A DNA stretch of 64,000 nt from Chloroflexota bacterium (GTDB lineage Bacteria; Chloroflexota; Dehalococcoidia; GIF9; AB-539-J10). Below are positions 5,988 to 44,640 of the stretch, piece by piece; positions within the stretch are counted from its first letter, which is position 1, and every line of letters starts with the position of its first letter. The notes beneath the pieces were generated by a model. The model was not told the origin of the DNA. It did no database searches and saw only the letters and a program-made list of their open reading frames with translations. The stretch is from the NCBI GenBank assembly GCA_036834125.1, contig DAITOK010000004.1, positions 4,446 to 68,445 of the forward strand, written 5' to 3'. A program made the translations under genes and the position numbers.

Positions 5988-6239
5988 TTAAAGGTTTTTC
6001 ATGCGCGGTTCCAGATAAGCCACGGAACTGTCCAGAGTAGCTAGTTGTACGTAGTCGTCTTCGGGGACCTCGATGCCGTAGCGTTTTCGTAGTTCCATAA
6101 TGATGTCAAGAAAATCCATGGAGTCCAATTCTATCTGTTCTCGTATCGGGATATTTCCCTTGAGGTTGCTAAGGTCTTCATCCGGTACGATCTGAGCTAT
6201 GATTTCGAGGATGGTGGCTCGGATTTGCTCTTTAGTCAT
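5988..6239 (-). CDS. acpP: acyl carrier protein
   Basis: 83 aa with the LDSMDFLDIIMEL phosphopantetheine-attachment motif (DSM in place of DSL). It sits between the KAS gene and the CrtI-like genes. Confidence 0.85.
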   Translation of the reverse strand: MTKEQIRATILEIIAQIVPDEDLSNLKGNIPIREQIELDSMDFLDIIMELRKRYGIEVPEDDYVQLATLDSSVAYLEPRMKNL

Positions 6240-6269
6240 GTCGCCTCCGTTTATTGAATACTTACTGCT

Positions 6270-7520: not shown

Positions 7521-7635
7521 ATGGTAGGACTTCCCCTATGCGTGTAGACCTTGAAGTGGCTTGAAGAAATCTAATTACATCACTATCTGCAGATATGCTT
7601 TTCTGGATTCACTTCGCTCTGGGTCGCTCCAAATT

Positions 7636-14156: not shown

Positions 14157-15109
14157 CACAAGAAGTTCAAAAACCACTACTGAAAATGCTCATCTGCGAT
14201 GATGACCCTGGAGATCGCAAATTAGTCCGGACTTATCTACAGCGGATGACCGACAGGGAAATTGTGTTGCTAGAAGCTGGGCATACAGAGGAAATTCAGA
14301 ACGCTTTGGACAAAGGTAGAATTGACCTCGTCTTGATGGATAATCAAATGCCAGGCAAATCCGGTATGGAATGGCTTAGCGAAATTACAAAACGACAACT
14401 TGCTCCCGTGATTATGTTGACGGGGTCGGGAACCGAAGAGATTGCAGTACAAGCCTTTCAAGAGGGAGCAGTCGGTTATCTGTCAAAGAATAACCTATCC
14501 AAAGAAAAACTTAAGAATGCTATTGATGCTGCCTTGGATAAATGGGCACGGCTACAACAAGCCATGGCTGACAAAGAGAGGTTGGAAAGACTGGCAAACT
14601 TCGATTCCTTGACCGGGTTGTATAACCGCCGAGCGATTTTCAGCAAGTTGTATGAGTTGATCAATCTCGCCAATCGCTATAAAGAAGACTTTAGTCTGAT
14701 CATGCTGGACATTGACCATTTTAAGAAGGTCAACGATACCTATGGACATCTCACTGGAGATGAGGTCTTGGAGAAACTTGCTACCTTAATCTGTCGGAAC
14801 ATCCGCGAGACGGATATAGTGGGACGCTATGGAGGAGAGGAGTTTATCATTATTTTGCCCAAGACAAACCTGTCCTCGGCTTGGATTGTAGCTGAGCGAA
14901 TCCGAAGTATAATCGAGAAGGCAGAGATGAGAGACGCCGCGGACAATATATTCTCCATAACCGTGAGTCAAGGACTAGCTGGATGGGAGAGGGGCGAAGA
15001 TGCTATGTCTCTTATCGCTCGCGCTGACGAAGCTCTGTACAAGGCTAAGCAGAAAGGACGGAACCGGGTACAAATTCTGCTCGGTCCCAGCCTGAGAGAC
15101 AAAGTCTAG
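14153..15109 (+). CDS. response regulator with GGDEF (diguanylate cyclase) output domain
   Basis: 318 aa with an N-terminal REC domain (LICDDDPGD, DLVLMDNQMPG) and a C-terminal GGDEF domain (RYGGEEFIIILP). Its start overlaps the previous stop. Confidence 0.85.
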   Translation: MTQEVQKPLLKMLICDDDPGDRKLVRTYLQRMTDREIVLLEAGHTEEIQNALDKGRIDLVLMDNQMPGKSGMEWLSEITKRQLAPVIMLTGSGTEEIAVQAFQEGAVGYLSKNNLSKEKLKNAIDAALDKWARLQQAMADKERLERLANFDSLTGLYNRRAIFSKLYELINLANRYKEDFSLIMLDIDHFKKVNDTYGHLTGDEVLEKLATLICRNIRETDIVGRYGGEEFIIILPKTNLSSAWIVAERIRSIIEKAEMRDAADNIFSITVSQGLAGWERGEDAMSLIARADEALYKAKQKGRNRVQILLGPSLRDKV

Positions 15110-15138: not shown

Positions 15139-16632
15139 TTATTTTTCTTGTTCGATTCCTTCTGGAGTCACTCCCAGTCTGTCGAAGGCATACTTGCCTT
15201 CAACGGGGATGCCCGCCAGGCGTTTTGCGATATTCTTAGTTTTTTCCACGTCGTAGCTACCCATAATAGCAATTTGCTCCATTCGAGGAGAGCCGCCACC
15301 GTGGACACCAGCATATTGCATCACGCCTGCTATCTCGGAACAAGACAAAGCCTGCACAAAGCGGAAAGCGCGATGTATGTCGTCTATTGATACCTTGGGG
15401 TTACGCATCATGTACTTCTTGATAAAGGGACCTATCTCTGGATTTAGCCAGTCTCCCTCACGGGGCAGCGTCGCCGGCATCCCGCCCGCTATATCCGCCA
15501 GAATATCATACTCATGATAGATATTTACACCGGCATGCCTTCGGCTCACGTTGCAGTAGAGCACATCCGGAACATATGTCCCAGAAGCTGCCTTCCGAGC
15601 ATTGACAGCAGCAGCGATGCCTGTCCCATAACATAGCTCTGAAGTGCAAATCAACTCAGCCAGCTTCTCCCTCACATGTGGCTCATTTTCAATTCCGTTG
15701 CATTCAGCCATCAAGGCGGTAGCGCCCGCGATCACATCTGTCATCGCCGGTTTGCAACCGGTATAGCTATGGCGATGATACAGGGCAAACATGAGCGCTA
15801 ACTGCCCTCCGTATTCGTATTCCCCATTCAAGAATACTCTTTCCCAAGGGACAAACACATTGTCAAAAATCACCATAGCATCGGCAGAGCCAAACGGACC
15901 GGGTGCGCCCATGCTAGTCGGCGTTTCGTAAAGAGCAGCACTTACAATCAGCTTCACACCTTCTTCATCAGCAGGTATAGCACAGGAAACTGCCCAAGGA
16001 CCTTCTTCCTTAGTCAGACGCCTTGTAGGCACGACCAATATCCACTCCTCAACGGGTGAGTAAGAGATGTGCACTTTGGCACCCCTGATCACGATACCAT
16101 CGCTCTTTGTTTCCACAACCCGAACATAAAGGTCAGGATCTAGCTGCTCGTGTGGCCTCCACGGGCGGTTCCCTTTGACATCCGTCTGAGCACAGGCTGC
16201 GGTACAATCTTTCTCCTGAAATTCTCTTAACCAGTTCTCAAATCTTTTGTGGTATTCAGTCCCGTAAGCCTTATCAACTTCATAAGTAACAACCGAATTG
16301 GCATTTATAGCATCAATGCCCATACAGCGAGCAATGCATCCTCCAACTTGGTGACAGGTTAGCCTGGTCATACGCTGTTTGGCTAGGAGATCGGCAATGC
16401 TGCGGTGGACATGACAGAACCGGTTTATCGTCTTGCCGGTCAGATGAGACTTGGCTGTCAATATATCTCTATACTCTTTGAACTCCGGGTCTCTTATGAT
16501 GTCATAGGTCTTCGCCAGAACGTTCACAGCCCCCTCTAAGCGCGGGTGGTCACGGTCTATTAGCTGCCCATTCATATAGACGTTCCGCTTCATCTTGCTC
16601 AATCTCTTTCGATACTCACTCGATGTAATCAC
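15139..16632 (-). CDS. abfD: 4-hydroxybutyryl-CoA dehydratase / vinylacetyl-CoA delta-isomerase (AbfD family)
   Basis: 497 aa with strong collinear similarity to AbfD from recall: GKTINRF, DGIVIRGAK, VIFDNVFVP and HGGGSP. Confidence 0.85.
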   Translation of the reverse strand: MITSSEYRKRLSKMKRNVYMNGQLIDRDHPRLEGAVNVLAKTYDIIRDPEFKEYRDILTAKSHLTGKTINRFCHVHRSIADLLAKQRMTRLTCHQVGGCIARCMGIDAINANSVVTYEVDKAYGTEYHKRFENWLREFQEKDCTAACAQTDVKGNRPWRPHEQLDPDLYVRVVETKSDGIVIRGAKVHISYSPVEEWILVVPTRRLTKEEGPWAVSCAIPADEEGVKLIVSAALYETPTSMGAPGPFGSADAMVIFDNVFVPWERVFLNGEYEYGGQLALMFALYHRHSYTGCKPAMTDVIAGATALMAECNGIENEPHVREKLAELICTSELCYGTGIAAAVNARKAASGTYVPDVLYCNVSRRHAGVNIYHEYDILADIAGGMPATLPREGDWLNPEIGPFIKKYMMRNPKVSIDDIHRAFRFVQALSCSEIAGVMQYAGVHGGGSPRMEQIAIMGSYDVEKTKNIAKRLAGIPVEGKYAFDRLGVTPEGIEQEK

Positions 16633-16665
16633 TGTAACCCCCTTTAGCTGATTTCATTTACCTTG

Positions 16666-17433
16666 CTATATGGTAGCGCCGCCATCTACCACGAGAACAT
16701 GCCCAGTCACATAGCTGGAAGCATCAGAAGCCAGGAAAATGGCAGCCCCCACCATCTCGTCAGGTTCAGCCACACGGTGCAACGGAGTCATTGCTGTAAC
16801 ACCTTTCACGATATCCGGGTTGCCCCAGAGGGCTTCGCTAAATCGAGTTTTGGTCAGCCCCGGCGCTATAGCATTCACTCTAATATTGTACTGCGCCCAT
16901 TGCTGCGCCATTACTTTCGTCGCCATAATCACTCCAGCTTTGCTGATGGAGTAGACTGGCAGGATATCAGGAGTAATTCCAGCCACCGAAGCGACGTTGA
17001 TAATGTTGCCTCCCCCTTGCTCTCTCATCACTCTGGCTACAGCCTGACTCAAGAAGAATAACCCTTTTAGATTGAGATTCATAATGGAATCCCAGGCACG
17101 CTCTTCTATATCTATAGCCTGATCCATAGTGGGGTTAGTGGCAGCATTGTTCACTAAAATATCAATCCGGCCAAACTCCTCTTTGACCTTGGGCACCAGA
17201 GTCTTTATCTCTTCCATCCTGCCTACATGTGCCGCCACAGCCAACGACTTCCGCCCGAGCTTCTTTATCTCCGCAGCCACTTCCTCCAGGTCCGGCAGTT
17301 TACGACTGGTTACTGCTACATCGGCGCCAAATCTGGCTAGCCCTATAGCAATAGCCTTGCCAATTCCGCGACTGCCACCAGTCACTAAGGCTACCTTGCC
17401 TGATAACGAAAAGATGTCTGGAGAAACACTCAT
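16666..17433 (-). CDS. SDR-family oxidoreductase
   Basis: It carries TGGSRGIGKAIA, NNAA and a YSISKAG catalytic Tyr/Lys. I set the start at ATG 17433 (MSVSP), 6 nt after an AGGAGG RBS. The longer ORF would translate through that RBS. Confidence 0.85.
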   Translation of the reverse strand: MSVSPDIFSLSGKVALVTGGSRGIGKAIAIGLARFGADVAVTSRKLPDLEEVAAEIKKLGRKSLAVAAHVGRMEEIKTLVPKVKEEFGRIDILVNNAATNPTMDQAIDIEERAWDSIMNLNLKGLFFLSQAVARVMREQGGGNIINVASVAGITPDILPVYSISKAGVIMATKVMAQQWAQYNIRVNAIAPGLTKTRFSEALWGNPDIVKGVTAMTPLHRVAEPDEMVGAAIFLASDASSYVTGHVLVVDGGATI

Positions 17434-17617
17434 TACATACCTCCTGAACACGATTTATCGGTCGAAGTTGCTGAGACCGACACCAGAGTATATATCAAGA
17501 TAGTGTCATAGGCAACTTGAGCAGCAAGGTTTATCAGTCGTTTTAAGCCCTCGCCCGGCTATGATATAGGAAGGCACACGAATTAGGCAAAAAGCTATGT
17601 GATGCAGCTTGTAAGCA

Positions 17618-18631
17618 TCATACATATGATTCGGCAAGCTGGAAATAACCCCGTGCACTTGCCAAAGCCTTTGCTTTTTCAGTCTGCGATATGAGTGGAT
17701 CATCAAGTTTGAAGCTTTCCACCTTGCCCCGCACATAAGCGCGGTAGCATTTGTAGAAATCGAGCAACTTCAGAAGTCCCTCATCACCGGTCACCTTTAC
17801 ATAGGTGCTCACAAGGTGGCGCGAAAGAACAGCTTGCCCATGGTGGTCCAAATCCATAGCCAGAAAGGCGAGCTCCGAAGCAACGTCGCAATAACGGAAC
17901 CTATCATTGAATTCGATGCAATCGTAAATATAAATATCCTTGGCAAAGCAGATATGGGCGGCATGAAGGTCGCCGTGGCAGTCTTTTATTTTTCCCTTTT
18001 CCACCCGTTTATCAAATAAACAGGCATTATTCTTGATGAAATCATCGGTGTAGCCTTTGATTCGCTGATAGCTTGCTTTAGGAATGCTAAGACCAATATA
18101 CTTCTCGGTCTGAGCAAAGTTTTCGTCACAATTGTGGCGTATAACATCTAATTGACCAAAAGAAGATATTCTTTCGTTCGTCTCAGCTCTGTGATGAAAG
18201 CTGGCCAGTTTTTCCACCACGCCGGTTACCATTTCTTTCGTGACCTTACCCTGAAGCAAGAGCACATCCATCATGTGCTCTTGAGGCAATTGCTTCATCT
18301 TGACAGTATACTCTATGGGTCTGCCTCGCCCTTCGATGCGAATTTTGCCCTTTTCTTCGGCAATTGGCACCACAGCTAAATAAACGTCGGGGCAAAGACG
18401 TCTGTTCAACTGCAACTCCTGTTGACAGAAGAAATGGCGTTTCTCCAAAGTAGTGTAATCGAGATAGCCAAGATTGACAGGCTTTTTAATCTTGTACACG
18501 TATTCGCCGGTGAGGAAAATAAAAGACATCTGGGTCTGAACTAGTTCTACCTTCTGTGGTTTGTGTAGATAAGACTCAGGCTTGAGGAGAGCTTCAATTG
18601 TAGATGGTAACGTTGACACTGGACTACTCAC
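17618..18631 (-). CDS. phosphotransferase-family protein (APH/choline-kinase-like fold)
   Basis: It has the Brenner-type HGDLH motif (DCHGDLHAAHICF) and a conserved N-terminal block YVYKIKKPVNLGYLDYTTLEKR. The start is uncertain. The ORF-track start overlaps the thiolase by 90 nt, so I placed it at a GTG near 18631, just after the thiolase stop. Confidence 0.55.
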   Translation of the reverse strand: MSSPVSTLPSTIEALLKPESYLHKPQKVELVQTQMSFIFLTGEYVYKIKKPVNLGYLDYTTLEKRHFFCQQELQLNRRLCPDVYLAVVPIAEEKGKIRIEGRGRPIEYTVKMKQLPQEHMMDVLLLQGKVTKEMVTGVVEKLASFHHRAETNERISSFGQLDVIRHNCDENFAQTEKYIGLSIPKASYQRIKGYTDDFIKNNACLFDKRVEKGKIKDCHGDLHAAHICFAKDIYIYDCIEFNDRFRYCDVASELAFLAMDLDHHGQAVLSRHLVSTYVKVTGDEGLLKLLDFYKCYRAYVRGKVESFKLDDPLISQTEKAKALASARGYFQLAESYV

Positions 18632-18635
18632 GGAA

Positions 18636-19931
18636 CTAAGCTCTTTCCCAAATAGCTGCCATCCCTTGTCCGCCACCAATGCACATAGTTTCCAAGCCAC
18701 GTCGTAGATTTCTGTGCACCATGTCATAGATGATGGTAACAGCTATTCTAGCTCCGGTGCAACCGATAGGATGACCCAAAGAAATGCCCCCGCCATGAGG
18801 ATTGATGTGGTTGAAATCCCACCCAAGCTCTTTCATACAACCCAGTACCTGGGCAGCAAAGGCCTCGTTGAGTTCAATGACATCAAAATCCTCGTTGCTC
18901 AGCCCTGTCCTTTTCAGCAGCTTTCTTACCGCGGGCACAGGACCCAGCCCCATATACTTTGGGTCTATCCCGCCTGAAGCCCAAGCCCTCAGGACTGCCG
19001 TAGGTTTAAGACCTAATTCTCTGGCTTTCTCGCGAGACATAAGCACTACAGCCGCAGCAGCATCATTAATACCTGACGAGTTGCCAGCTGTGACTGTTCC
19101 ATCTTTGCGGAAAGCTGGGGCAAGTTTAGCCATTTTCTCCATAGAAGTGTCCATCGGCCGTTCATCAGTATCGAAAATAACAGGCTCGCCCTTCTTTTGT
19201 GGAATAGCCACAGGTACTATTTCATCCTTGAACAAACCGTCAGCAATCGCTTTCCGTGCCCGCATATGACTAAGGTAGCCTATCTCATCCTGCTGCTCAC
19301 GGGTGAAGCCGTATCTCCTAGCAATCTCTTCAGCAGTATTTCCCATGTGATAGCCATAGAATATTTCCCACAGTCCGTCAAATACCATAAGGTCTATAAG
19401 CTCCCCTCTGGCACCGACATCCATACGGTAGCCCCAGCGTGCTTTAGGGAGGGCATACGGAGTATTGCTCATGTTTTCCATACCCCCAGCAATCACTACT
19501 TCAGCCTCTCCCAACATTATGGCTTCTGCCCCTAGGGTGATAGCCTTTAACCCTGAGGCACATACCTTATTCACGGTGAAGGCTGGGGTTTCTTTGGGAA
19601 TGCCGGCGTAAATTGATGCCTGACGGGCGACGTTTTGTCCCTGCGCTCCTTGAAGGACATTCCCCATAATTACTTCATCAACCTGCACAGGGCGCAAAGA
19701 GGAATCGTAATCATAATATTTCTTTTCCAGCTCTATCATGCCATCACACTTGAGTGCATCAGGAGTGTAACTTAGTGCTTCTTCACTGGATTTTGGTCTC
19801 AGGCTGGCTCGTTTAAGTGCCTCCTTGATTACGATAGCGCCTAGTTCAACTACAGGTATATCTTTTAAAGAACCGCCAAACGCACCAATTGCTGTCCTAG
19901 CACCACTGACAACGACTACTTCTCTTGCCAT
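18636..19931 (-). CDS. acetyl-CoA C-acyltransferase (thiolase II-type)
   Basis: 431 aa with the active-site Cys in NKVCASGLKAI, a C-terminal GGGQGMA and a CIGGGQG-like motif. Confidence 0.9.
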   Translation of the reverse strand: MAREVVVVSGARTAIGAFGGSLKDIPVVELGAIVIKEALKRASLRPKSSEEALSYTPDALKCDGMIELEKKYYDYDSSLRPVQVDEVIMGNVLQGAQGQNVARQASIYAGIPKETPAFTVNKVCASGLKAITLGAEAIMLGEAEVVIAGGMENMSNTPYALPKARWGYRMDVGARGELIDLMVFDGLWEIFYGYHMGNTAEEIARRYGFTREQQDEIGYLSHMRARKAIADGLFKDEIVPVAIPQKKGEPVIFDTDERPMDTSMEKMAKLAPAFRKDGTVTAGNSSGINDAAAAVVLMSREKARELGLKPTAVLRAWASGGIDPKYMGLGPVPAVRKLLKRTGLSNEDFDVIELNEAFAAQVLGCMKELGWDFNHINPHGGGISLGHPIGCTGARIAVTIIYDMVHRNLRRGLETMCIGGGQGMAAIWERA

Positions 19932-20023
19932 GATTTAATCTCCTTCCTGTTGAAACTTCTTTTCGGTAAGGTGCCTAATACCCTTAGCTAAGCAAAACCG
20001 CAGTCTAGCGCTTAAACGTCAGA

Positions 20024-20449
20024 CTATAAAGGTTTGAATGCCAGAAAAGTCGTCGAGTTGGCTCCTTCGCCTCTATGCAAAAACGTTACCTGAACCAAAG
20101 TGCCGATTTTTATGGTTTCGGGCTTGTTGCCGTCTACACCCTCGATACGAGCCACCACTTTCACTCCTTCCTCTAGCTCTACCACGCCGGAGACGTAAGG
20201 AAGTTTCCTATCATAACCTTCTTTTATCATGAACGGAGGACCTATTGCTATGCAGGTAAAAGCCACAAGCTTGCCTTTCCCTTTCATCTCAACCCACTTC
20301 ATTTTAGTGCCATAACACTTGATGCAAATAGGGCGGGGCGGGACAAAAAGAGACCCACACTTCAGACATTTCGACCCCATCAACTTTTCTTCATTGAGGA
20401 ACCGCTCATAAGAAATATCATTCAAGAGCCTTTCTTCCATTTGCTTCAT
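20024..20449 (-). CDS. Zn-ribbon OB-fold protein (DUF35 family), thiolase partner
   Basis: 141 aa with the CLKCGSLFVPPRPICIKC zinc ribbon followed by an OB-fold. It overlaps the upstream thiolase-like gene by 4 nt. Confidence 0.8.
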   Translation of the reverse strand: MKQMEERLLNDISYERFLNEEKLMGSKCLKCGSLFVPPRPICIKCYGTKMKWVEMKGKGKLVAFTCIAIGPPFMIKEGYDRKLPYVSGVVELEEGVKVVARIEGVDGNKPETIKIGTLVQVTFLHRGEGANSTTFLAFKPL

Positions 20450-21711
20450 CTCCTTTCCAGGATGACAAACGTAGAAGTACCTCCTGTCCCGCCCAAGCTT
20501 TGAGCTGCACCAAATCGTAAATCCTTAATAGGAACTTGCCTTTCTCCTGCTTCGCCTCTCAATTGCTTCCAAATCTCCACAAGCTGCCCTGTGCCTGTGG
20601 CCCCTACGGGATGACCTTTGCACTTAAGCCCCCCTGAGGTATTGATAGGCTTAGCACCATCCAATCTTGTCAACCCTTCCGCTACTGCTTTGTACCCTTC
20701 TCCGGGCTTGAAAAAACCTAAATCTTCAATGTGAATAATCTCAGCTATGGAGAAGCAATCATGAACCTCAGCGATTTGAATGTCTGCAGGCTTGAGCCCC
20801 GCTAGCTCATAGGCTTCTTGTGCGGCATATCTCGTAGCTTCGAAATAAGTGAGGTCTTCTTTGGCATGCAAAGCCTTACCACTACCTTGCCCAATACCCA
20901 CAACATACAATGGGTTATCAGTGAAATCCCTGGCTATTTCCTCGGCCACTAACAACACACAACTTGCCCCGTCACTGATGGGACAACAATCGTAGAGATG
21001 CATGGGCCAGGCAACTACGGGATTGGCTTGCGGGTCGCTGAGAAACTCCTTTTCGTCCCTCCACTTGGGTACAGGCTGCCCCATTTTCTTAGCCCTCTCA
21101 ATTCTCTGGTTCATGATGTCACGAATAGAGACATTGAATTGTGCCTTGGGGTTAAGGCGAGCATTATTGTGGCTTTTTATGGTCACATTCATCAGATGCT
21201 CTCGATTAGCTCCGTATTTAGCGAAATAGGCAACAGCTATGGCGCCAAAAACACCGGGAAAGGTAAATCCAGACTTCGCTTCATAAGGGCTGGCAGCCAT
21301 GGCCAGTCCCTGTGTAACTTCCTCCGTGCTCCGTTTGGACATCTCTTCGACCCCACCAACTAACACTACATCGTAGAACCCTGAGGCTATAGCAAAAACC
21401 CCCTCTCTGAATGCCAGCGCGCTGGAAGCACAAGCCCCTTCCGTCCGCGTGGCTGGTTTAGCCGTAAACCCTAGCAAATCTGAGATTATGGGGCCCCAGT
21501 GTCCCTGACGAACAAAGAAATCATTCGTGAAATTCCCTAGATAGATAGCATCAATGTCTTTAGGGTCTACTCCTTTATCCACTGTGGAAAGCATCTCTTG
21601 GAAAGCTTCAGCAAATAAGTATTTTGAATCCTTGTCTCTAAACACGCCAAACTTTGACATTCCCGCACCCACCATAGCTATTCCTCTCCCTAATTTTCTG
21701 CGCCCTCGCAT
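20446..21711 (-). CDS. thiolase-domain protein (SCP-x / archaeal-type thiolase family)
   Basis: It has the catalytic Cys in TRTEGACASSA and a C-terminal GGLKCKGHPVGATG. I set the start at ATG 21711 (MRGRR) directly after GGAGG. The longer ORF would overlap the amz gene region. Confidence 0.8.
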   Translation of the reverse strand: MRGRRKLGRGIAMVGAGMSKFGVFRDKDSKYLFAEAFQEMLSTVDKGVDPKDIDAIYLGNFTNDFFVRQGHWGPIISDLLGFTAKPATRTEGACASSALAFREGVFAIASGFYDVVLVGGVEEMSKRSTEEVTQGLAMAASPYEAKSGFTFPGVFGAIAVAYFAKYGANREHLMNVTIKSHNNARLNPKAQFNVSIRDIMNQRIERAKKMGQPVPKWRDEKEFLSDPQANPVVAWPMHLYDCCPISDGASCVLLVAEEIARDFTDNPLYVVGIGQGSGKALHAKEDLTYFEATRYAAQEAYELAGLKPADIQIAEVHDCFSIAEIIHIEDLGFFKPGEGYKAVAEGLTRLDGAKPINTSGGLKCKGHPVGATGTGQLVEIWKQLRGEAGERQVPIKDLRFGAAQSLGGTGGTSTFVILERR

Positions 21712-21740
21712 ATTACCTCCTAAATAGAAATCCTGGTCGC

Positions 21741-22256
21741 TCAAAAAATAATCCTGGGGCAGCACTGAGGACAAAAATACATTTCCTTCAAATCAGTATC
21801 AGCCAGGCTATTAGAAAAGTGCATGACACACTTATTGTTGGAACAATGCCCCAAGCCAAAAGTGTGCCCCAGTTCATGAATTATCTCTTTGGTGGCTCTC
21901 TCTAGAAACAAAGTTTCGTTCGGAGCTAAACCGTAATATTCTTGCTTCAGCCGATACAGAGATATAATGGCTGTGCCTGAGACCGCATCGGCCTCGCCAA
22001 ATACAAAGTTAAGCTTGGGAACATAAAGATCCACATCGGTTATACCCACAACCCTTTCCCCCTTTTCGGACCTCCCCAGAAAAGCTAGCAATTTCGAGGA
22101 AAAGTACTGCTTCCTCTGTGGATCATAAGCCTGAGTTAAATCGGTAAGACCTTTCCCTATCTGCACAATACAATGGAAAACTCCACTAACCCTGTCCCTA
22201 AGCTTCTCCATTATCTCATCAGCCACCTCGCCCATTGGCTTAAGTGTGATTTTCAC
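21741..22256 (-). CDS. amzA: archaemetzincin-like zinc metallopeptidase
   Basis: 171 aa with HELGHTFGLGHC (HExxHxxGxxH plus Cys) and a C-terminal CPQCC. Confidence 0.85.
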   Translation of the reverse strand: MKITLKPMGEVADEIMEKLRDRVSGVFHCIVQIGKGLTDLTQAYDPQRKQYFSSKLLAFLGRSEKGERVVGITDVDLYVPKLNFVFGEADAVSGTAIISLYRLKQEYYGLAPNETLFLERATKEIIHELGHTFGLGHCSNNKCVMHFSNSLADTDLKEMYFCPQCCPRIIF

Positions 22257-35186: not shown

Positions 35187-35837
35187 TCACCACAATCGGC
35201 GCTCCGTGCCTTGTCTTAAGCGTTTGATATTGTCCCGATGCTGATAGACAATCAAGGCGACAACCACTAAGCCATAAATCAGATAAATAGGCGGAAGCAA
35301 ATTGTGGACAATAGTTAGAGGTAGCATCAAACACCAAGCTGCAAAGGAGCCAAGAATAGAACCAAGGGACATGTACCGACTACGTAAGGCTGCTATAGCC
35401 ACAATCTCAGCTCCGAATATGCCAGCCGGAGGAAAAATTGCGAATATCGTGCCAAAATAGGCGGTTACCCCTCTGCCCCCTCTAAACTTAGCGAATATTG
35501 GCCAATTATGCCCAACCACTGCAGCAAAGCCGGCAGCCACCTGGGCTATATGTTGCCAGTAAATAGACAAACTACCAATAGCTAAAACTCCATTGCCAAC
35601 ATCTACGATTACCGTCGCCAGCAAGACCGCCACTGCACCTTTTGCTACATCAAGCACCAAGGTCAAAAGACCTAACTTTGTTCCCACCGTTCTCATAACG
35701 TTAGTAGCGCCAGTCCGTCCACTTCCATATTGTCTGACATCAATGCCTTTCTTTAGCTTGCCTATGATTAAGCCAAACGGGATGGAACCCAGTAGATAAG
35801 CAATAGCTACTACAGCAATAAGCTCAGCTATTATCAT
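35187..35837 (-). CDS. plsY: glycerol-3-phosphate acyltransferase PlsY
   Basis: 216-aa polytopic membrane protein with a YLLGSIPFG N-terminus and GSGRTGATN. Confidence 0.9.
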   Translation of the reverse strand: MIIAELIAVVAIAYLLGSIPFGLIIGKLKKGIDVRQYGSGRTGATNVMRTVGTKLGLLTLVLDVAKGAVAVLLATVIVDVGNGVLAIGSLSIYWQHIAQVAAGFAAVVGHNWPIFAKFRGGRGVTAYFGTIFAIFPPAGIFGAEIVAIAALRSRYMSLGSILGSFAAWCLMLPLTIVHNLLPPIYLIYGLVVVALIVYQHRDNIKRLRQGTERRLW

Positions 35838-38273: not shown

Positions 38274-38516
38274 ATGGAAACCAATGTGAGATGTTACTCC
38301 GGCTACATCTATGCTCAAGAACCACGGGTGTTCACTTGGCAAGGAAAGGAAATAAAAATAAAGTCACTGAAACAGGTTCAGCAAGAGCCAGGCAAAAGGT
38401 TGTTCAAAGTTATCGCTGAGGATGGTAAACTATTTGAATTATGTTACAATGAAGCAGCTGACCGGTGGTCGGTTGTTGAATTACTAAGGAGTGAAAAGCA
38501 TGAAAGAGATCTTTGA
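38274..38516 (+). CDS. small hypothetical protein
   Basis: 80-aa ORF (METNVRCYSG...) with a GGTGAG RBS 5 nt upstream. It overlaps the lrp-like start by 26 nt and has no recognisable motif. Confidence 0.3.
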   Translation: METNVRCYSGYIYAQEPRVFTWQGKEIKIKSLKQVQQEPGKRLFKVIAEDGKLFELCYNEAADRWSVVELLRSEKHERDL

Positions 38517-38982
38517 GATTCTGGAGCAGAATGGTCGGGCAACTCCCGAACGGATTGCCACTATGGTAGACAAACCTGTTCGTGAGGTCGAGAAAATAAT
38601 TAAGCAAGCTGAGAAAGACGGAACAATCCTGAAATATAAAGCCGTAATAGACTGGTCTAAACTAGGCGAAGAAGATGTCTGGGCTTTAATTGAAGTCAGA
38701 GTAGCACCGCAACGTGGTGTGGGTTTCGATGCCATTGCTGAGCGCATCTATCAATTTCCGGAAGTATATTCTGCTTATCTCGTGTCCGGCACGTACGACT
38801 TGGCTATACTAGTAAGAGGTAAGAATATGCAGGAAATATCCACGTTCGTCGCCGAGAAACTGTCTCCCTTGGAGCAAGTGCAAAGTACAGTCACCCATTT
38901 TCTAATGAAACGCTATAAGGAGAACGGGGAAATCCTCAAAGTTGTCAAGGAAACAAATAGACGCCTACCCATAACGCCGTGA
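38491..38982 (+). CDS. Lrp/AsnC-family transcriptional regulator
   Basis: 163 aa with an N-terminal HTH (ILEQNGRATPERIATMV) and a C-terminal RAM/AsnC_trans domain. Confidence 0.85.
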   Translation: MKSMKEIFEILEQNGRATPERIATMVDKPVREVEKIIKQAEKDGTILKYKAVIDWSKLGEEDVWALIEVRVAPQRGVGFDAIAERIYQFPEVYSAYLVSGTYDLAILVRGKNMQEISTFVAEKLSPLEQVQSTVTHFLMKRYKENGEILKVVKETNRRLPITP

Positions 38983-38983
38983 C

Positions 38984-40201
38984 ATGCCGCGCACAAAGCT
39001 GACATTAAGCAAAACTCGAGATAACTTGATTTCACAGAAGGTGGCTACGCTGCCACCTTCGGGGATCAGGAAGTTTTTCGACCTACTTTCTTCTGTGAAA
39101 GACGTCATCTCGCTTAGTATTGGCGAGCCTGATTTCGTCACCCCCTGGCATATCAGGGAATCTGGCATATATTCTCTGGAAAAGGGCTACACCATGTACA
39201 CTTCGAACTCTGGCATGCCTGAACTACGCCAAGAATTAGCCTACTACTTGGAGAATCATTACGGGATAAGCTACAACCCCGAGTATGAAATTCTCATTAC
39301 GACAGGAAGCAGTGAAGCATTAGATCTTGCTCTGAGAGCAATTATCAATCCCGGGGACGAGGTCATAATTCCCAACCCTTGCTATGTGGCTTATCCTGCC
39401 GATGTTATTCTGGCTGGAGGCGTTCCCATCCTGATTCCCACGAATGAAGGAAACAACTTCGTCGTCAAGGCAAACGATATTGAACCTCGAATCACAAAGC
39501 ATACAAAGGCTATTTTGGTAGGTTACCCGGCAAACCCTACAGGCGCGGTCATATCCAAGAAAGAGGCAGAGGCAATTGCCGAGGTAGCTAAAAAATATGA
39601 TTTACTGGTAATATCTGATGAGATATATGCTCGTCTGGTCTACGGAGTAGAACATGTTTGTTTCCCTAGCCTTCCCGGAATGAAGGAGCGCACCATCCTG
39701 ATCAGTGGGTTTTCCAAAGCCCATGCCATGACTGGCTGGCGTATTGGCTATGTGGCAGCCGAGCGGTATCTAATACAAGCCCTGACCAAAATACATCAAT
39801 ATACTATGCTTTGTGCCCCTACAATGGCGCAAATGGCAGCCATCGAAGCCCTCAGAAACGGTGAAGCTGAAGTCGAAAAGATGGTTCAAGAATACAACCG
39901 ACGCCGTCGCATCATGGTCAAAAGATTGAACGAAATCGGCTTACCATGTTTTGAACCCAAGGGGGCTTTCTATGCCTTCCCTTCTATAAAAGCTACTGGA
40001 ATGAATTCAGAGGAATTTGCCGAGAAGCTGCTCTTAGAAGAAAGAGTTGCTGTAGTCCCAGGTACTGCTTTCGGTCCATACGGTGAAGGCTTTGTTCGCT
40101 GCTGTTATGCTACATCGTTATCCAACATCGAAGAGGCTCTGAAAAGAATAGACAGGTTTGTTAGACAGCATAGGCTAATCACAACGCAAGGGGTAAATTA
40201 A
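38984..40201 (+). CDS. PLP-dependent aminotransferase, class I (aspartate/aromatic aminotransferase-like)
   Basis: 405 aa with the Lys motif GFSKAHAMTGWRIGY and the fold-type I pattern. It starts 2 nt after the lrp-like stop. Confidence 0.85.
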   Translation: MPRTKLTLSKTRDNLISQKVATLPPSGIRKFFDLLSSVKDVISLSIGEPDFVTPWHIRESGIYSLEKGYTMYTSNSGMPELRQELAYYLENHYGISYNPEYEILITTGSSEALDLALRAIINPGDEVIIPNPCYVAYPADVILAGGVPILIPTNEGNNFVVKANDIEPRITKHTKAILVGYPANPTGAVISKKEAEAIAEVAKKYDLLVISDEIYARLVYGVEHVCFPSLPGMKERTILISGFSKAHAMTGWRIGYVAAERYLIQALTKIHQYTMLCAPTMAQMAAIEALRNGEAEVEKMVQEYNRRRRIMVKRLNEIGLPCFEPKGAFYAFPSIKATGMNSEEFAEKLLLEERVAVVPGTAFGPYGEGFVRCCYATSLSNIEEALKRIDRFVRQHRLITTQGVN

Positions 40202-40325
40202 AACAAGTTCTAGTTTTGCCTACTATTTCACAAAGATACACTAATGTATCCGTACTTGGATGGCTTCAAGTATGGGACTTTTATAATAAAGACTTTATGT
40301 GAATCCCCCAGGAGGTGAATTAGTT

Positions 40326-41669
40326 ATGGATGGACAGAAAGAAAAGAAGGTGATAAACCGTCTTCAATCAATGTACCCGCTCAGGAATAAAGTAAATGAG
40401 ACATACCTAAAAAGTATTGAAGCTATAAAAGCAGGCAAGCCTGCTGTTTGGGCTATGCTCAACTTCTATTATGGTGACCCAATTCTGAAAGCCATGGATA
40501 TAGAAGTGGTCTATCCTGAGAACTATGGTGCTCTTGCCGCAGCTGTAGGTGTCGCCCAGCAATACCTAGATCGAGCTATTGCTGAGGGTTTTCCTACTCA
40601 TCTTTGCGGCTATAGCCTGACCACCATAGGCTACACGGCTAGGATGATGAAGGATTTGAAAGGGCAAATACCGCCGGAAGCACCCGTTGGGGGAATGCCC
40701 AAGCCACTATTTTTGCTGTCCTCGGCAGCTATATGTGATGCAAGATACAAGTGGTTCCAAGCATTGGGGCGCTATATGGATGTTCCGGTCTGGCCATTAG
40801 AAGCTCCCATCCCCGGCATCAAAGAATTTTCAATTGGGGGCTATTATGAAAGGATGGTGGAGCTGGGAGTAAAGCACCTGAGGGACTTTGTGGCTTTTGT
40901 CGAAAAGATGGTGGGCAGGAAGATGGATTGGGACAAGCTGAACAAAATGGCGAATCTCATGATAGAGATCAATCGCGTTTGGCACGAGATCAACGAACTG
41001 CGTAAAGTAAAGCCATGCCCTATGCACAGCCGAGACTTCTGGAGTGCCATGCCTGCCGCTTTGTTCTTAGCTGGCGACCTTGAGGACTCACTGAAGCTCT
41101 ACCAGAATATGTATCAGGAGGTAAAAGAGAGGGTCAACAGCCATATGGGTGCCATCCCCAATGAGAAATACCGTTTGGTGTTTGCCGAGCTTCCTCCTTG
41201 GCACAGCCTGGGCTTTTTCGACAAACTGGCAGAGAGGGGATGGAATTTCGTCATGGAGAGCTTTGGTTATCATCCGCCCATACCCCTGGATCTCAGTAAG
41301 GTCAGTGACCCTCTTGAGCGCATTACCAGATTCAGTCTCCAATTCCTTGTTGGCTACTACGAGGATGCCCGAAAACACAACGCGATTGGCGGCACCTCTG
41401 CTTATCCTTACCTGAAGTTTGCTAAGGAATGGAGATGCGATGGAGCACTCCTTCATCCCCTCATCAGTTGCCGCAGTGCCTCGACACACCTTCCCTATGT
41501 TTCAAACATGCTCATGGAGAAGCTCAGGGTCCCCTCCTTAACCATAGAAGGTGATATCGTAGATCTTCGCTTGTTTAACCCGGAAGATGCCCTAGCTAAG
41601 GCAGAGCCATTCGAGGAAATCTTGGAACACTATAGAAAGGTCAGAAGACTGGAAGGGTTTGACTGGTGA
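40326..41669 (+). CDS. 2-hydroxyacyl-CoA dehydratase / benzoyl-CoA reductase family subunit (HgdA/BcrB-like)
   Basis: About 447 aa from ATG 40326, which sits 8 nt after AGGAGGTG. The family is recognised by overall similarity and conserved Cys residues. Confidence 0.75.
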   Translation: MDGQKEKKVINRLQSMYPLRNKVNETYLKSIEAIKAGKPAVWAMLNFYYGDPILKAMDIEVVYPENYGALAAAVGVAQQYLDRAIAEGFPTHLCGYSLTTIGYTARMMKDLKGQIPPEAPVGGMPKPLFLLSSAAICDARYKWFQALGRYMDVPVWPLEAPIPGIKEFSIGGYYERMVELGVKHLRDFVAFVEKMVGRKMDWDKLNKMANLMIEINRVWHEINELRKVKPCPMHSRDFWSAMPAALFLAGDLEDSLKLYQNMYQEVKERVNSHMGAIPNEKYRLVFAELPPWHSLGFFDKLAERGWNFVMESFGYHPPIPLDLSKVSDPLERITRFSLQFLVGYYEDARKHNAIGGTSAYPYLKFAKEWRCDGALLHPLISCRSASTHLPYVSNMLMEKLRVPSLTIEGDIVDLRLFNPEDALAKAEPFEEILEHYRKVRRLEGFDW

Positions 41670-41716
41670 TACACTTGGGTTTCAACTGACATTTCAACCG
41701 ACAAGGAGGCGCACAG

Positions 41717-42883
41717 ATGCCAGACAAAACGAAAGGTCTCAAGAAAGCTCGAGAAATTTATTTGAATCGTTCGCAGAGAGTCAGAGAGCTCAAGGCGGCG
41801 GGGAAAAGGATAATAGGCTATCCCTGTGTCTATGTGCCGCTGGAGATGCTCACCGCTCTTGACCTCATTCCCTACCGAACGTGCGGCAACATCAGGGAAC
41901 CCGTCACCGAAGCGGATAAGGCGTTGCCTAGCTCATTTTGCCCTCTCATGCGCACCTGTCTCGATTGTGCTCTGAAAGGCAAAAACGATTTTTTGGATGG
42001 TATGGCAACGATTCACTCCAGCGACCCTCAGGAAAAGACTTCTCGTGTCTGGCAATCTTATACTAACTATTCCTACTACCATTTTATAGACATGCCCATC
42101 ACCGTTCGTCCCGAAGCCCTAGAATACTTCAGAAACCAGCTAAACGATTTCAGAAAGACTCTGGAGGCTTTCACCGGGAAGAAGTTGACCAGAGACAAGC
42201 TCGAGGCAGCTATTAAAGCTCACAATGAACAGCGGACCTTAGTGAGAAAATTGTACGAACTAACGAAGCCATCACTACCATTCATCTCGGGAACAGAAAT
42301 CGTTCAGGTAGTAAAGGCTTTAGAAAGCTTGCCTGTAACTGATGCGAATGACCTTTTAACAGAGGTCATAAGCGAAGTACAAGACCGCACCGATAAACCC
42401 CAGAAAAAGCCAGCACGTCTTCTGATATGGAGTAGTACTCTTGATGATGCCGACATCATGCAAGTATTTGAGGCTAAGGCTAATGTGGTGATGAACGAAA
42501 GCTGTGGCGGTATTAGAGCTTATAGAGGTATGGTGAAATTGACCGCTGACCCATTGGAGGGGCTTGCCAACTACTATCTCAACGAAATCACCTGCGCCCG
42601 CACGTTCAGGCAGGCTACTCTCGGTGAAACCAAAAAAGACTACATTCGAGACCTCCAGAGTCGTTTTGGCTATTTCAAAGGTATCATCCAAGATTGGAAA
42701 ATCAATGGTGTCATAATGCTGCTTGTTAGATATTGTGACCCGTTTGCCTTTGAAATGCCATCGCTAAAAGATTACTTGGACAGCATTGGTGTCCCCAGCA
42801 CATATATAGAATATGACTATTCCCTAGGAACCCTAGCCCCATTAAGGATCAGGGTCGAAGCTTTCCTTGAGACGCTGAGTTAA
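41717..42883 (+). CDS. 2-hydroxyacyl-CoA dehydratase / benzoyl-CoA reductase family subunit (HgdB/BcrC-like)
   Basis: 388 aa with GYPCVYVPLEMLTALDLIP and multiple conserved Cys residues, typical of the D-component family. Confidence 0.75.
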   Translation: MPDKTKGLKKAREIYLNRSQRVRELKAAGKRIIGYPCVYVPLEMLTALDLIPYRTCGNIREPVTEADKALPSSFCPLMRTCLDCALKGKNDFLDGMATIHSSDPQEKTSRVWQSYTNYSYYHFIDMPITVRPEALEYFRNQLNDFRKTLEAFTGKKLTRDKLEAAIKAHNEQRTLVRKLYELTKPSLPFISGTEIVQVVKALESLPVTDANDLLTEVISEVQDRTDKPQKKPARLLIWSSTLDDADIMQVFEAKANVVMNESCGGIRAYRGMVKLTADPLEGLANYYLNEITCARTFRQATLGETKKDYIRDLQSRFGYFKGIIQDWKINGVIMLLVRYCDPFAFEMPSLKDYLDSIGVPSTYIEYDYSLGTLAPLRIRVEAFLETLS

Positions 42884-42906
42884 CAGTAGTCCGCGAGGAG
42901 GCTTAC

Positions 42907-43749
42907 TTGTATTTCGCTGGTGTTGATATAGGCTCAACCATGACCAAGGTTGTGCTCATAGACAAGAGCAACAACTTACTTGCAACCATCAAAGGTCCCA
43001 CCGGTCCCGAGTATCGCCAACTTGCCAACGAAGTCATGTGGCAGGCGCTTAAGCAAGCGAAGTTACGGATTGAAGATATCTCTTACATTGTAGCTACAGG
43101 CTATGGACGGCTCAATGTACCTTTCGCGGACTGCCAGATAACAGAGCTTTCTTGTCATGCCAAAGGCGTGTCCAGTCTTTTTCCCAACGTCAGGACGGCA
43201 ATTGATATAGGCGGCCAAGATGCTAAGTGCATGAAAATTGACAAAGGCAAACTCGTCAGCTTCGTCATGAACGATAAGTGTGCTGCTGGCACCGGCAGAT
43301 TTCTTGAGGTGACAGCATCTGCGCTAGACATCCGATTAGAAGACATGGGAGATATTTCCTTAAATGCCACCAAGAAAATCCACATAAGCAACTTATGCAC
43401 TGTCTTCGCCCAGCAAGAAGTAGTGAGCCTCCTTTCTCGCGGAGAAAAGCTGGAAAACATTCTAGCTGGACTGCACGATGCCTTGGCTAGCCGCGTAGCC
43501 ACACTGGCACGGCGGCTTAATATAGAGCCTGATGTAGTACTCACCGGTGGCGTGGCTAAGAATACAGGCATGGTCAGGGCAATGAAAGAAAGCTTGGGGT
43601 ACGAAATCCTTGTTCCAGACGAACCGCTCATCACCGGCGCACTTGGTGCTGCCATCCGGGCAAAGGAAATCTATATGAATGCCATGGCGGTGGGAGAGAT
43701 GCTGCCTAAAAAGACGCGACGGCTGGAAAAAGCTACCTTCTTCTGTTAG
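42907..43749 (+). CDS. acyl-CoA dehydratase activase / BadF-BadG-BcrA-BcrD family ATPase, copy 1
   Basis: 280-aa ASKHA fold with GVDIGSTMTKVV at the N-terminus and a CAAGTGRF cluster-helix motif. Confidence 0.85.
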   Translation: MYFAGVDIGSTMTKVVLIDKSNNLLATIKGPTGPEYRQLANEVMWQALKQAKLRIEDISYIVATGYGRLNVPFADCQITELSCHAKGVSSLFPNVRTAIDIGGQDAKCMKIDKGKLVSFVMNDKCAAGTGRFLEVTASALDIRLEDMGDISLNATKKIHISNLCTVFAQQEVVSLLSRGEKLENILAGLHDALASRVATLARRLNIEPDVVLTGGVAKNTGMVRAMKESLGYEILVPDEPLITGALGAAIRAKEIYMNAMAVGEMLPKKTRRLEKATFFC

Positions 43750-43757
43750 GAGCAACC

Positions 43758-44561
43758 ATGACCTGGGCTATGGGTATTGATATTGGCTCGGCATATAGCA
43801 AAGGTGTCATAATCAAAAATTTTGAGTTTGTAGCTTCATATATAGTCATATCGGGAGCCAATTATCGAGCATCTGCCGATACTATAAGGACAGAGTTATT
43901 AAGAAAGGCAAACCTTATCCAAAAAGACCTAGCCAATATTGTAGCTACTGGCTGCGGTGCTGATAATGTCTATTTTGCTAGCCAAAAGGCAAGCGACATA
44001 GTTTGCACTGCACGGGGCATAAACAATGTGTTTCCACAAGTCAGAACTGTGATTGATGTAGCCAGTCAATCCACTAGAGTAATACGGCTGAACGGAGAAG
44101 GAATTGTAACTAACTTTACCGTGAGCGAGAAATGCGCTGCTGGTGGTGGACGTTTTATTGAAGTTATCGCCAACGTCTTGAGGGTAAGTGTGAATGACTT
44201 CAGTTCGCTGGCAGCCAAATCGAAAAACCCTATTACGTTTGGTACGGGCTGTGCTGTCTTCGGCGAATCTGAGGCTATTACTAGGATAAGTGAGGGCACA
44301 TCCAAAGAAGATATTGCTGCCGGTGCTAACAAGGCTCTGGCAAGCAAGATCTCTGCTTTGGTCAAGAAGACTAAGCTAGAGGAGCCCTATGCCATCTGTG
44401 GCGGCGGCGCTCTCAACAACACTCTCATCAAAGCTATAGAGGACGAATTGAACACGAAGCTATTAACACCACCACATCCCCAATTTATTACTGCCCTTGG
44501 CGCTGCCATAATCGCCGCAACATCAGCCATACCCGAACTCAGCAAAGAAACGCAGAGCTAA
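43758..44561 (+). CDS. BadF-BadG-BcrA-BcrD family ATPase, copy 2
   Basis: 267 aa with GIDIGSAYSKGV at the N-terminus and CAAGGGRF. It is a paralog of the preceding gene and sits 8 nt downstream of it. Confidence 0.8.
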   Translation: MTWAMGIDIGSAYSKGVIIKNFEFVASYIVISGANYRASADTIRTELLRKANLIQKDLANIVATGCGADNVYFASQKASDIVCTARGINNVFPQVRTVIDVASQSTRVIRLNGEGIVTNFTVSEKCAAGGGRFIEVIANVLRVSVNDFSSLAAKSKNPITFGTGCAVFGESEAITRISEGTSKEDIAAGANKALASKISALVKKTKLEEPYAICGGGALNNTLIKAIEDELNTKLLTPPHPQFITALGAAIIAATSAIPELSKETQS

Positions 44562-44611: not shown

Positions 44612-44640
44612 TTGACAAGAACCTAGAACAGCGTATAATA
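44612..44640 (+). promoter_or_regulatory. perfect sigma70-consensus promoter
   Basis: TTGACA (44612-44617), an exact 17-nt spacer, and TATAAT (44635-44640), about 70 nt upstream of the 44714 start. Confidence 0.6.

Follow-up and report, generated by a model that had tools for sequence, protein, structure and literature searches.

Four adjacent genes on the plus strand of a 64,000-nucleotide stretch of DNA from a Chloroflexota bacterium (the window) encode two different proteins of the HGD-D family and two different ATPases of the BcrAD_BadFG family. We tentatively read them as a single heterotetrameric, oxygen-sensitive Fe-S radical enzyme of the benzoyl-CoA reductase (BCR)/2-hydroxyacyl-CoA dehydratase (HAD) superfamily, one that may carry out HAD-type dehydration on a BCR-type chassis; we give this proposal slightly less than an even chance. 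As judged from the protein sequences, the enzyme belongs to a large clade without a characterised member and is an orthologue of no named BCR or HAD; all NCBIfam equivalog cut-offs are missed by a wide margin. The substrate is very likely a CoA thioester, because CoA ligases, CoA-transferases, hydratases, dehydrogenases, thiolases and a mutase recur near the four genes. The evidence from the hardware of the enzyme, which is reductase-like, and the evidence from its neighbours, which is dehydratase-like, disagree, and much of what follows is concerned with how the two are to be weighed.

The first gene (40326–41669) encodes a 447-aa HGD-D protein (PF06050, E = 4.6e-42), the likely catalytic and substrate-binding subunit and counterpart of BzdO, MbdO and HadB, and the second (41717–42883) a 388-aa HGD-D protein (PF06050, E = 9.8e-75), the putative electron-relay subunit and counterpart of BzdN. 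They are followed by ATPase 1 (280 aa, 42907–43749; PF01869, E = 8.9e-68; TIGR00241, 276 bits), which is canonical and MbdQ/HadI-like, and by ATPase 2 (267 aa, 43758–44561; PF01869, E = 3e-43), its divergent partner, with intergenic gaps of 47, 23 and 8 bp. An earlier reading of the sequence alone (the sequence-only reading) had described just such a set of two different HGD-D subunits and two distinct ATPases, and its sizes are exact. A start for the 447-aa subunit at 40326 is supported by a Shine-Dalgarno sequence, AGGAGGTGA, 7 nt 5' of the ATG, with which the lengths of the orthologues agree. The four genes are real and under selection rather than chance open reading frames, since they have Pfam matches, the same contig is present in a JGI metagenome with identical gene calls, and 233 genomic stretches of the GTDB species-representative collection were confirmed to carry an orthologue of the 447-aa subunit. 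The relatives of the window contig are Dehalococcoidia metagenome-assembled genomes (MAGs); the hosts of the family as a whole are mostly Dehalococcoidia, with Syntrophales and Desulfobacterales in addition.

For comparison we used solved BCRs, BzdNOPQ of Aromatoleum sp. CIB (PDB 8S02) and MbdONQP of Thauera chlorobenzoica (PDB 9G87/9GAI), and as HADs Clostridioides difficile HadBC with its activator HadI (PDB 3O3M/4EHT) together with HgdAB and HgdC. In the 447-aa subunit C94, C137 and C382 are invariant in the family and align with BzdO C95, C128 and C380, which hold a [4Fe-4S] cluster with water on the fourth iron, and the equally invariant E65 lies in a YPEN motif and aligns both with the catalytic E65 of BzdO and with E55 of HadB, around which HadB carries the same YPEN motif. 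The alignment thus predicts a three-cysteine open [4Fe-4S] site accompanied by the YPEN glutamate. The residues that surround the substrate in BzdO are kept less well. Arginine (R140) stands at the position of BzdO H131, a histidine that MbdO likewise lacks and that is therefore not a universal BCR feature; BzdO Gln274 is replaced by Leu289 and Leu383 by Ala, Tyr97 is retained as Y96, and both the N-terminus of BzdO and its residues 288–360, which include Y298 and L302, do not align with the subunit. The benzoyl-thioester pocket (BzdO Tyr97, Gln274, Tyr298, Trp46, Leu302 and Leu383) is accordingly not conserved as a set. The family has signatures of its own, including the motif P230-C-P-M-H-S-R-D-F238, located where the CoA-binding/CoA-channel helix III of BzdO starts, CD(A)RYKWFQ past the second cluster cysteine, LPPWH, and HP..SCR..ST.

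An AlphaFold model of the 447-aa subunit (pLDDT 82.8) compared with solved structures in Foldseek gives TM-scores of 0.79–0.80 with BzdO, 0.81 with MbdO and 0.77 with HadB, and lower scores (0.58–0.64) with the partner subunits BzdN, MbdN and HadC. Identity to BzdO and MbdO is only 22%. The two HGD-D proteins of the window, which align only in part, are ~23% identical to each other. The family profile scores 119 bits on HadB, 112 on BzdO and 92 on MbdO, so that by these measures the catalytic subunit appears equidistant from the catalytic subunits of dehydratases and reductases represented by HadB and BzdO.

The 388-aa subunit is more clearly reductase-like. The [8Fe-9S] double-cubane cluster of BzdN is ligated by Cys36, Cys73, Cys100, Cys263, Cys293 and Cys327 (Fuchs et al. 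2025, PMC11971306), and HMMER alignment places these residues opposite C37, C75, S102, C263, C293 and C340. In an alignment of 71 orthologues and the window copy (n = 72) five of the ligand columns hold Cys in 69–72 sequences, the distal ligands C37, C263 and C293 being conserved in 69–71; column 102, which corresponds to the proximal sub-cluster ligand Cys100, holds Cys in 52 sequences and Ser in 20, the window copy being one of the latter. HadC keeps Cys only at the third of the distal positions, the first two being Pro and Ala. In a search of the PDB, BzdN is the best match (150 bits) and HadC scores 89 bits. As a separate observation, relatives with a 447-aa subunit ~85% identical to that of the window carry Ser or Cys here in an interleaved pattern, which implies repeated Cys/Ser switching at one Fe-S ligand position.

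Three cofactor states have been distinguished in this superfamily, with two double cubanes in the double-cubane cluster proteins (DCCPs), one double cubane and an open [4Fe-4S] cluster in BCR, and a [4Fe-5S] remnant and an open [4Fe-4S] cluster in HAD (Fuchs et al. 2025, PMC11971306). From its predicted ligands the four-subunit enzyme would have the BCR state. The BCR-like layout of subunits and cofactors that the sequence-only reading had emphasised is therefore borne out, both in the six BzdN ligand positions kept in the 388-aa family and in the O-N-Q-P order of the genes.

The ATPases are distant from one another, with 34% identity by BLASTP and 32% in a multiple alignment. A neighbour-joining tree of 12 diverse orthologue pairs with four solved references places every ATPase-1 sequence in a single clade beside MbdQ and every ATPase-2 sequence in another; because the two clades are separate in every lineage, the duplication predates the spread of the family. 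We therefore reject a recent duplication of a single activase gene, for which identity above 90% had been the proposed mark, and the earlier claim of two distinct ATPases holds. ATPase 1 shares 46% identity with each of HadI and MbdQ, and its DIGGQD and GDIGST motifs and cluster cysteines C125 and C164 are invariant in the family. In ATPase 2 the cluster cysteines C126 and C165 are also invariant, and the nucleotide motif is degenerate: it reads DVASQS in the window copy, 50 of 57 orthologues have Ser in place of the Asp, and the GG is unconserved. A milder change, to DIGGQT, is found in MbdP, the delta subunit of 3-methylbenzoyl-CoA reductase. In sequence, the pair looks like an asymmetric heterodimer.

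These features raise an alternative explanation, and the main rival to a dehydratase, namely that the enzyme is an ATP-stoichiometric reductase with the mechanics of BCR and a substrate other than benzoyl-CoA. Candidates would be substituted aryl-, dienoyl- or other hard-to-reduce acyl-CoA esters, and even the reductive removal of the hydroxyl group from a 2-hydroxyacyl-CoA. Two electrons would be stored in the double cubane, and each electron would cost the ATPase heterodimer about one ATP. The combination of six double-cubane ligand positions in one subunit with a three-cysteine open cluster in the other is a layout that Fuchs et al. (2025) assign to BCR and set apart from HAD, and BzdN as the best solved relative of the 388-aa subunit, the two ancient and different ATPases, one of which resembles MbdP in its degenerate nucleotide motif, and the O-N-Q-P order with its tight spacing all fit such an enzyme. 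The two-ATPase trait is not fully diagnostic, as DCCP-R is a reductase system without heterodimeric ATPases (PMC7317905). The changes at BzdO H131 and Q274 and the unaligned residues 288–360 also speak against this reading. Taking the gene context described below into account, we regard the reductase as possible but rather doubtful.

A narrower version of the same idea, that this is a genuine class I BCR which dearomatises benzoyl-CoA at a cost of 2 ATP, appears very improbable. Its architecture is that of BCR, relatives carry the label 'benzoyl-CoA reductase subunit B' at JGI, and class I BCR has been claimed in marine Dehalococcoidia (PMC5736913; bioRxiv 10.1101/400804). The scores against the BCR equivalog models (TIGR03190/03191/03192 and TIGR02259–02263) fall far short of the cut-offs, however, at 93 against 449 bits for BzdO and 47 against 487 for BcrB with the 447-aa subunit, 151 against 454 for BzdN with the 388-aa subunit, 114 against 421 for BcrC, and 174 and 124 against 380 for BzdQ. 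To this are added the 22% identity to BzdO and MbdO and the lack of conservation of the catalytic His131 and the thioester-binding Gln274. No linkage to benzoate-CoA ligase, dch/had/oah or badK/H/I-type genes or to a ferredoxin gene of the pathway was recognised in the 64-kb window or in 80 related loci, and no Dch/Had/Oah-type match occurs among the best NCBIfam hits of the neighbours tested.

Those 80 loci come from species-representative genomes and were surveyed with flanks of up to 8 kb, in which open reading frames were called, clustered and mapped. The four genes are matched in 80, 72, 65 and 65 of them, always in the same order, and several loci end at contig edges; the two ATPase genes are present wherever the contig extends far enough. 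No gene besides the core four is universal. Beyond these loci, representatives of 50%-identity clusters include 140 relatives of the 447-aa subunit at E ≤ 1e-30, and the window family forms a single branch within a far larger clade that is uncharacterised. The ten top matches that we looked up, nine of which are within the ~114 full-length representatives described next, are all from metagenomes or MAGs of uncultured organisms and bear only generic names, and a literature search found no paper on the clade of these four genes. About 114 full-length representatives, at 27–46% identity, share a looser form of the family signatures (YPEN, CxY, CD.RYKW, PCPM..D, PPWH and SCR).

The neighbourhoods fall into several types. 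In that of the window (a), divergent pyrB-like, der, plsY and gpsA genes lie 5' of the four genes, and genes for two small exported proteins, an extracytoplasmic function (ECF) sigma factor and an S8 peptidase lie 3'. A carboxylase type (b) has a divergent biotin carboxylase, a carboxyltransferase, an enoyl-CoA hydratase, a BKACE-family enzyme and an acyl-CoA dehydrogenase, and a housekeeping type (c) has purF-purM-purH, pncAB and sometimes plsY on the 5' side and an acyl-CoA dehydrogenase on the 3' side. Acyl-CoA dehydrogenase genes were found inside the 8-kb flanks of 15 loci. The window also carries an enoyl-CoA hydratase gene at 52.5 kb and electron transfer flavoprotein (ETF) genes at 62.5–64 kb.

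Another type (d) is found in Thermodesulfobacteriota MAGs and two Dehalococcoidia MAGs, where genes for a short-chain dehydrogenase/reductase (SDR), an SCPx-type thiolase and a DUF35 protein are followed by the four genes and a MaoC hydratase gene. It includes loci L068, L072, L073, L075–L078, L080, L081 and L048, which are of Syntrophales- or Desulfobacterales-type or from Dehalococcoidia MAGs, and most of its loci also contain a B12-dependent acyl-CoA mutase (large and small subunits) and MeaB; some have a GntR regulator and a FadD-type ligase as well. The SDR/thiolase/DUF35 row stands 5' of the four genes in nine loci (Thermodesulfobacteriota MAGs and the Dehalococcoidia locus L081), seven of which hold all four, and in at least three of the nine the four genes share a strand with the mutase. 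L072 and L048 have the mutase arrangement without this row, and in L072 MeaB, the four genes and the mutase run on one strand with a gap of 10 bp between ATPase 2 and the mutase. The mutase itself is divergent, and NCBIfam identifies it only as 'methylmalonyl-CoA mutase-like' (425 bits against an equivalog cut-off of 876); its TMY and VVR segments resemble those of the carboxylate-binding Tyr89 and Arg207 in methylmalonyl-CoA mutase, a likeness to which we give no weight. There is no acyl-CoA dehydrogenase in the gene rows of these loci except in L081, where one lies beyond the mutase. On this arrangement the four-gene enzyme would fill an operon slot that needs an enoyl-CoA-forming step, where an acyl-CoA dehydrogenase would be expected. 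The same operons, with their hydratase, dehydrogenase and thiolase following, form a formal parallel to the series BCR-Dch-Had-Oah and can to that extent be claimed for a reductase.

Three further types bring in 2-hydroxy acids and CoA transfer. Locus L074 (e) encodes, in order, an MFS transporter, a 3-hydroxyacyl-CoA dehydrogenase, an HMG-CoA-synthase-like/DUF35 protein, a thiolase, two family III CoA-transferases, the two HGD-D proteins, an AMP ligase, an acyl-CoA dehydrogenase, an SDR, an enoyl-CoA hydratase and a third family III CoA-transferase. A gene for a LarA-like nickel-pincer 2-hydroxyacid racemase lies 60 bp downstream of the four genes on the same strand in L031 and L032 (f), and a D-2-hydroxyacid dehydrogenase gene abuts the last ATPase gene in L040, L043, L044, L045 and L047 (g), with an ADP-forming acyl-CoA synthetase gene near. 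In the had operon of C. difficile, ldhA-hadA-hadI-hadBC-acdB-etfBA, the dehydratase serves the reductive pathway of leucine (PMC6311696), and the neighbours of the four genes, when pooled across lineages, appear to add up to the partner types of that operon. A fermentation of 2-oxo and 2-hydroxy acids, which the sequence-only reading had put forward on the strength of an adjacent Lrp-family regulator and aminotransferase, is in this way given support from elsewhere, namely from the racemase, the D-2-hydroxyacid dehydrogenase, the family III CoA-transferases and the acyl-CoA dehydrogenases; the adjacency on which it was based fares less well, as discussed below.

We rank HAD-type chemistry above the reductase on three grounds, which are the operon slot in the Syntrophales- and Desulfobacterales-type loci, the racemase and dehydrogenase neighbours, and the plausibility of a dehydratase that has retained ancestral hardware. 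A racemase and a 2-hydroxyacid dehydrogenase are without a role beside an aryl-CoA reductase, and the reductase likewise provides none for the family III CoA-transferases and the aminotransferase. In addition the hosts are strict, energy-limited anaerobes, in which catalytic use of ATP is more plausible than stoichiometric use (established knowledge, discussed in PMC11971306).

For an enzyme with HAD-type chemistry on such a chassis, we infer the electron path, the ketyl-radical chemistry, the class of CoA substrate and the choice of dehydration over reduction as follows. The two non-identical ATPases would heterodimerise around a bridging [4Fe-4S] cluster, for which two invariant cysteines are observed in each, and binding and hydrolysis of ATP, chiefly by ATPase 1, would supply the double-cubane-type cluster of the 388-aa subunit with a low-potential electron. 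From there the electron would pass to the open-site [4Fe-4S] cluster of the 447-aa subunit and convert the thioester carbonyl of the bound acyl-CoA to a ketyl radical. The substrate would be an aliphatic, possibly dicarboxylic (R)-2-hydroxyacyl-CoA, not benzoyl-CoA, derived from amino, 2-oxo or 2-hydroxy acids, and the net reaction a HAD-type dehydration to an enoyl-CoA. This product may then be hydrated, oxidised and thiolysed by the MaoC hydratase, the SDR and the thiolase/DUF35 proteins, or else be reduced by an acyl-CoA dehydrogenase. The dehydratase would have kept the ancestral double cubane and the two-gene ATPase module.

Several observations weigh against this proposal. To our knowledge every HAD has one homodimeric activator gene, and the family described here conserves two distinct ATPases along with the six-ligand set. 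In the only HAD with a solved structure the distal sub-cluster has been lost (PMC11971306). The 388-aa subunit is clearly closer to BzdN than to HadC (150 against 89 bits), the order of the genes equals that of mbdONQP, and their tight spacing of 8–47 bp suggests equimolar subunits. The HadB and HadC equivalog models give only 105 and 116 bits, their cut-offs being 750 and 700. Each of the HAD-type neighbours is confined to particular lineages and none is universal, several stand on the opposite strand or behind a possible terminator, and many loci have housekeeping neighbours (pur, pncAB and plsY). We also found no experimental datum for any member of the family. A more novel reading is that the enzyme is either a dehydratase with a double cubane and asymmetric ATPases or a new ATP-driven enzyme for net reduction of an aliphatic CoA ester, for example by reductive dehydroxylation of a 2-hydroxyacyl-CoA; we put this forward as a possibility of modest likelihood only.

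A different proposal from the sequence-only reading was a split form of the anaerobic plasmalogen synthase, and we considered whether the four polypeptides might be an analogue of PlsA/PlsR or Ger acting on the sn-1 acyl ester of a membrane lipid. The number of domains is the same, with two ATPase and two reductase/dehydratase units in a total of ~1,380 aa, and the PlsA/PlsR coding region of 4.2–4.9 kb implies ~1,400–1,640 aa. Furthermore, in L021, L026, L030, L043, L044 and L045 the gene next upstream on the same strand is plsY, which encodes the acyl-phosphate:glycerol-3-phosphate sn-1 acyltransferase; in the window group it is 4.5 kb away in a gpsA-plsY-der block (plsY at 35187–35837 on the minus strand of the window). 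The gaps to plsY are ~80–500 bp, however, and its orientation in the window is opposite, which fits inherited synteny better than an operon. The core of PlsA/Ger is a fusion of two PF01869 domains with PF09989 (DUF2229, 'BBD'; PMC13159169; bioRxiv 10.64898/2026.06.23.733905), whereas both HGD-D subunits match PF06050 over their full length and only PF06050, with no match to PF09989 even at E ≤ 10; their closest relatives are CoA-ester enzymes, and so are most of the conserved neighbours. Membership of the PlsA/Ger family is rejected on domain content (separate polypeptides, no PF09989), the plasmalogen synthase proposal is not supported, and a lipid-directed analogue seems to us highly unlikely, the position of plsY being the one observation that speaks against dismissing it outright.

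Equally remote is a DCCP-like reductase of small non-CoA molecules, or some function outside the readings considered here. It would draw on the best NCBIfam match of the 388-aa subunit, which is the double-cubane reductase model (NF040772, 199 bits against a cut-off of 350), and on the many loci that have housekeeping neighbours only. DCCPs are homodimers with a seven-cysteine motif and one ATPase gene (PMC7317905), whereas the four-gene enzyme always includes a BzdO/HadB-type subunit with one open cluster, and CoA-ester enzymes recur nearby.

Upstream of the four genes, in a co-directional row of plus-strand reading frames that extends from 38.2 to 44.6 kb and includes a 90-aa frame without a family match, lie genes for an Lrp/AsnC regulator (38491/38500–38982; PF01037, E = 1.8e-17) and a class I/II aminotransferase of 405 aa (38984–40201; PF00155, E = 8e-76), the latter scoring just below the cut-off of PRK07682 (593 against 620 bits, NCBIfam). 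A conserved link between these two genes and the four-gene unit is not supported. Among 87 loci they adjoin it only in the window and in five of the closest relatives (L005, L010, L011, L014 and L052), and the 124-bp gap between the aminotransferase and the first HGD-D gene contains a terminator-like hairpin with a 12-bp stem and a T-rich tail (40249–40276, plus strand; a consensus match only), which is consistent with a linkage that is not conserved. The regulator and the aminotransferase are probably lineage-specific neighbours in a separate transcription unit, and we reject them as conserved components of the system. An Rfam scan of the window found no RNA family. On the other side of the four genes a perfect sigma-70 consensus (TTGACA, 16 nt, TATAAT; 44612–44639, plus strand), 51 bp past the stop of ATPase 2, precedes the genes for the two small exported proteins, the ECF sigma factor and the S8 peptidase, which are also found 3' of the four genes in related loci.

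Other parts of the window were noted in passing. A second acyl-CoA module (15139–21774, minus strand) encodes a 497-aa HpaB-family protein, an SDR, a thiolase, a DUF35 protein (ChsH2 OB-fold) and an SCPx-type thiolase; the HpaB Pfam family also includes 4-hydroxybutyryl-CoA dehydratase. A cluster dependent on acyl carrier protein (ACP) lies at 289–8685 on the minus strand, with L083 as a related contig, and contains genes for a phosphopantetheinyl transferase, an SDR, a FabA/ApeI-like dehydratase, a FabG-like reductase, two FAD amine-oxidase/phytoene-desaturase-like proteins, ACP, a ketosynthase and a FabH-like enzyme. The set resembles a specialised pathway for a lipid or polyene more than housekeeping fatty-acid synthesis. 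Between the two, at 11377–15109 on the plus strand, is a signalling trio of a histidine kinase with at least four PAS domains (776 aa), a stand-alone receiver and a receiver-GGDEF diguanylate cyclase.

The database label 'benzoyl-CoA reductase' is probably wrong for the four-gene enzyme, as the family misses every curated threshold and its gene context points elsewhere. Similarly labelled genes have been used to argue that subsurface Dehalococcoidia degrade aromatic compounds by an ATP-consuming class I BCR, an inference that its authors found puzzling on energetic grounds (PMC5736913; bioRxiv 10.1101/400804). Should the enzyme be a dehydratase, or a net reductase of an aliphatic CoA ester, that argument would rest on misassigned 'class I BCR' genes. 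The scheme of Fuchs et al. (2025), in which a double cubane in one subunit marks a reductase and its loss a dehydratase, would meet a test in BCR-type hardware set in a HAD-type context, as would current views on the purpose of the double cubane and of the ATPase heterodimer. The clade is a deep branch of the BCR/HAD superfamily, well conserved, widespread in uncultured anaerobes and marked by traits that are not usually combined, and it constitutes a sizeable blind spot in anaerobic carbon metabolism.

Among known systems, the enzyme shares with PlsA/PlsR/Ger the two ATPase and two reductase/dehydratase-type units and a similar total size, and differs from PlsA/Ger in its unfused polypeptides, the absence of a PF09989 match, a different gene order and a context dominated by CoA-ester enzymes. 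For DCCP we took as references the DCCP/DCCP-R system of Carboxydothermus hydrogenoformans (PDB 6ENO/7YYL) and YjiM/YjiL of Escherichia coli. The cysteine spacing of the 388-aa subunit (C-x18-C-x18-C-x26-(C/S)-x160-C-x29-C-x46-C) is DCCP-like, and ATP-dependent reduction of the cluster would be a shared property. In DCCP, however, two identical subunits each carry a double cubane and work with one homodimeric ATPase, whereas the four-gene enzyme would pair the double-cubane subunit with a substrate-binding subunit of one cluster in a heterodimer served by two ATPases, and its 199 bits stand well below the cut-off of 350.

With HAD the enzyme has in common the three-cysteine cluster and YPEN glutamate of the 447-aa subunit (HadB E55), a family profile that scores best on HadB (119 bits), the 46% identity of ATPase 1 to HadI, and neighbours that across lineages include family III CoA-transferase, acyl-CoA dehydrogenase, ETF, D-2-hydroxyacid dehydrogenase and aminotransferase. 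HAD differs in its one homodimeric activator gene and in the [4Fe-5S] remnant of its small subunit, in place of which the four-gene family has two distinct ATPase genes and the full six-ligand double-cubane set. From the Bzd and Mbd reductases the enzyme departs in its 22% identity, the equivalog cut-offs missed, the replacement of His131 by Arg and of Gln274 by Leu, the unaligned aromatic-pocket region, the lack of benzoyl-CoA pathway genes nearby and the strictly anaerobic hosts, and from Bzd in the Ser of the window copy at the position of BzdN Cys100. What it shares with them is the joint encoding of four subunits, two of the HGD-D family and two non-identical BcrAD_BadFG ATPases of which one is divergent, the three-cysteine open [4Fe-4S] site with a conserved Glu in one HGD-D subunit and the six [8Fe-9S] cysteine positions in the other, the mbdONQP gene order, and the best fold matches of the 447-aa subunit (TM-scores of 0.79–0.81).

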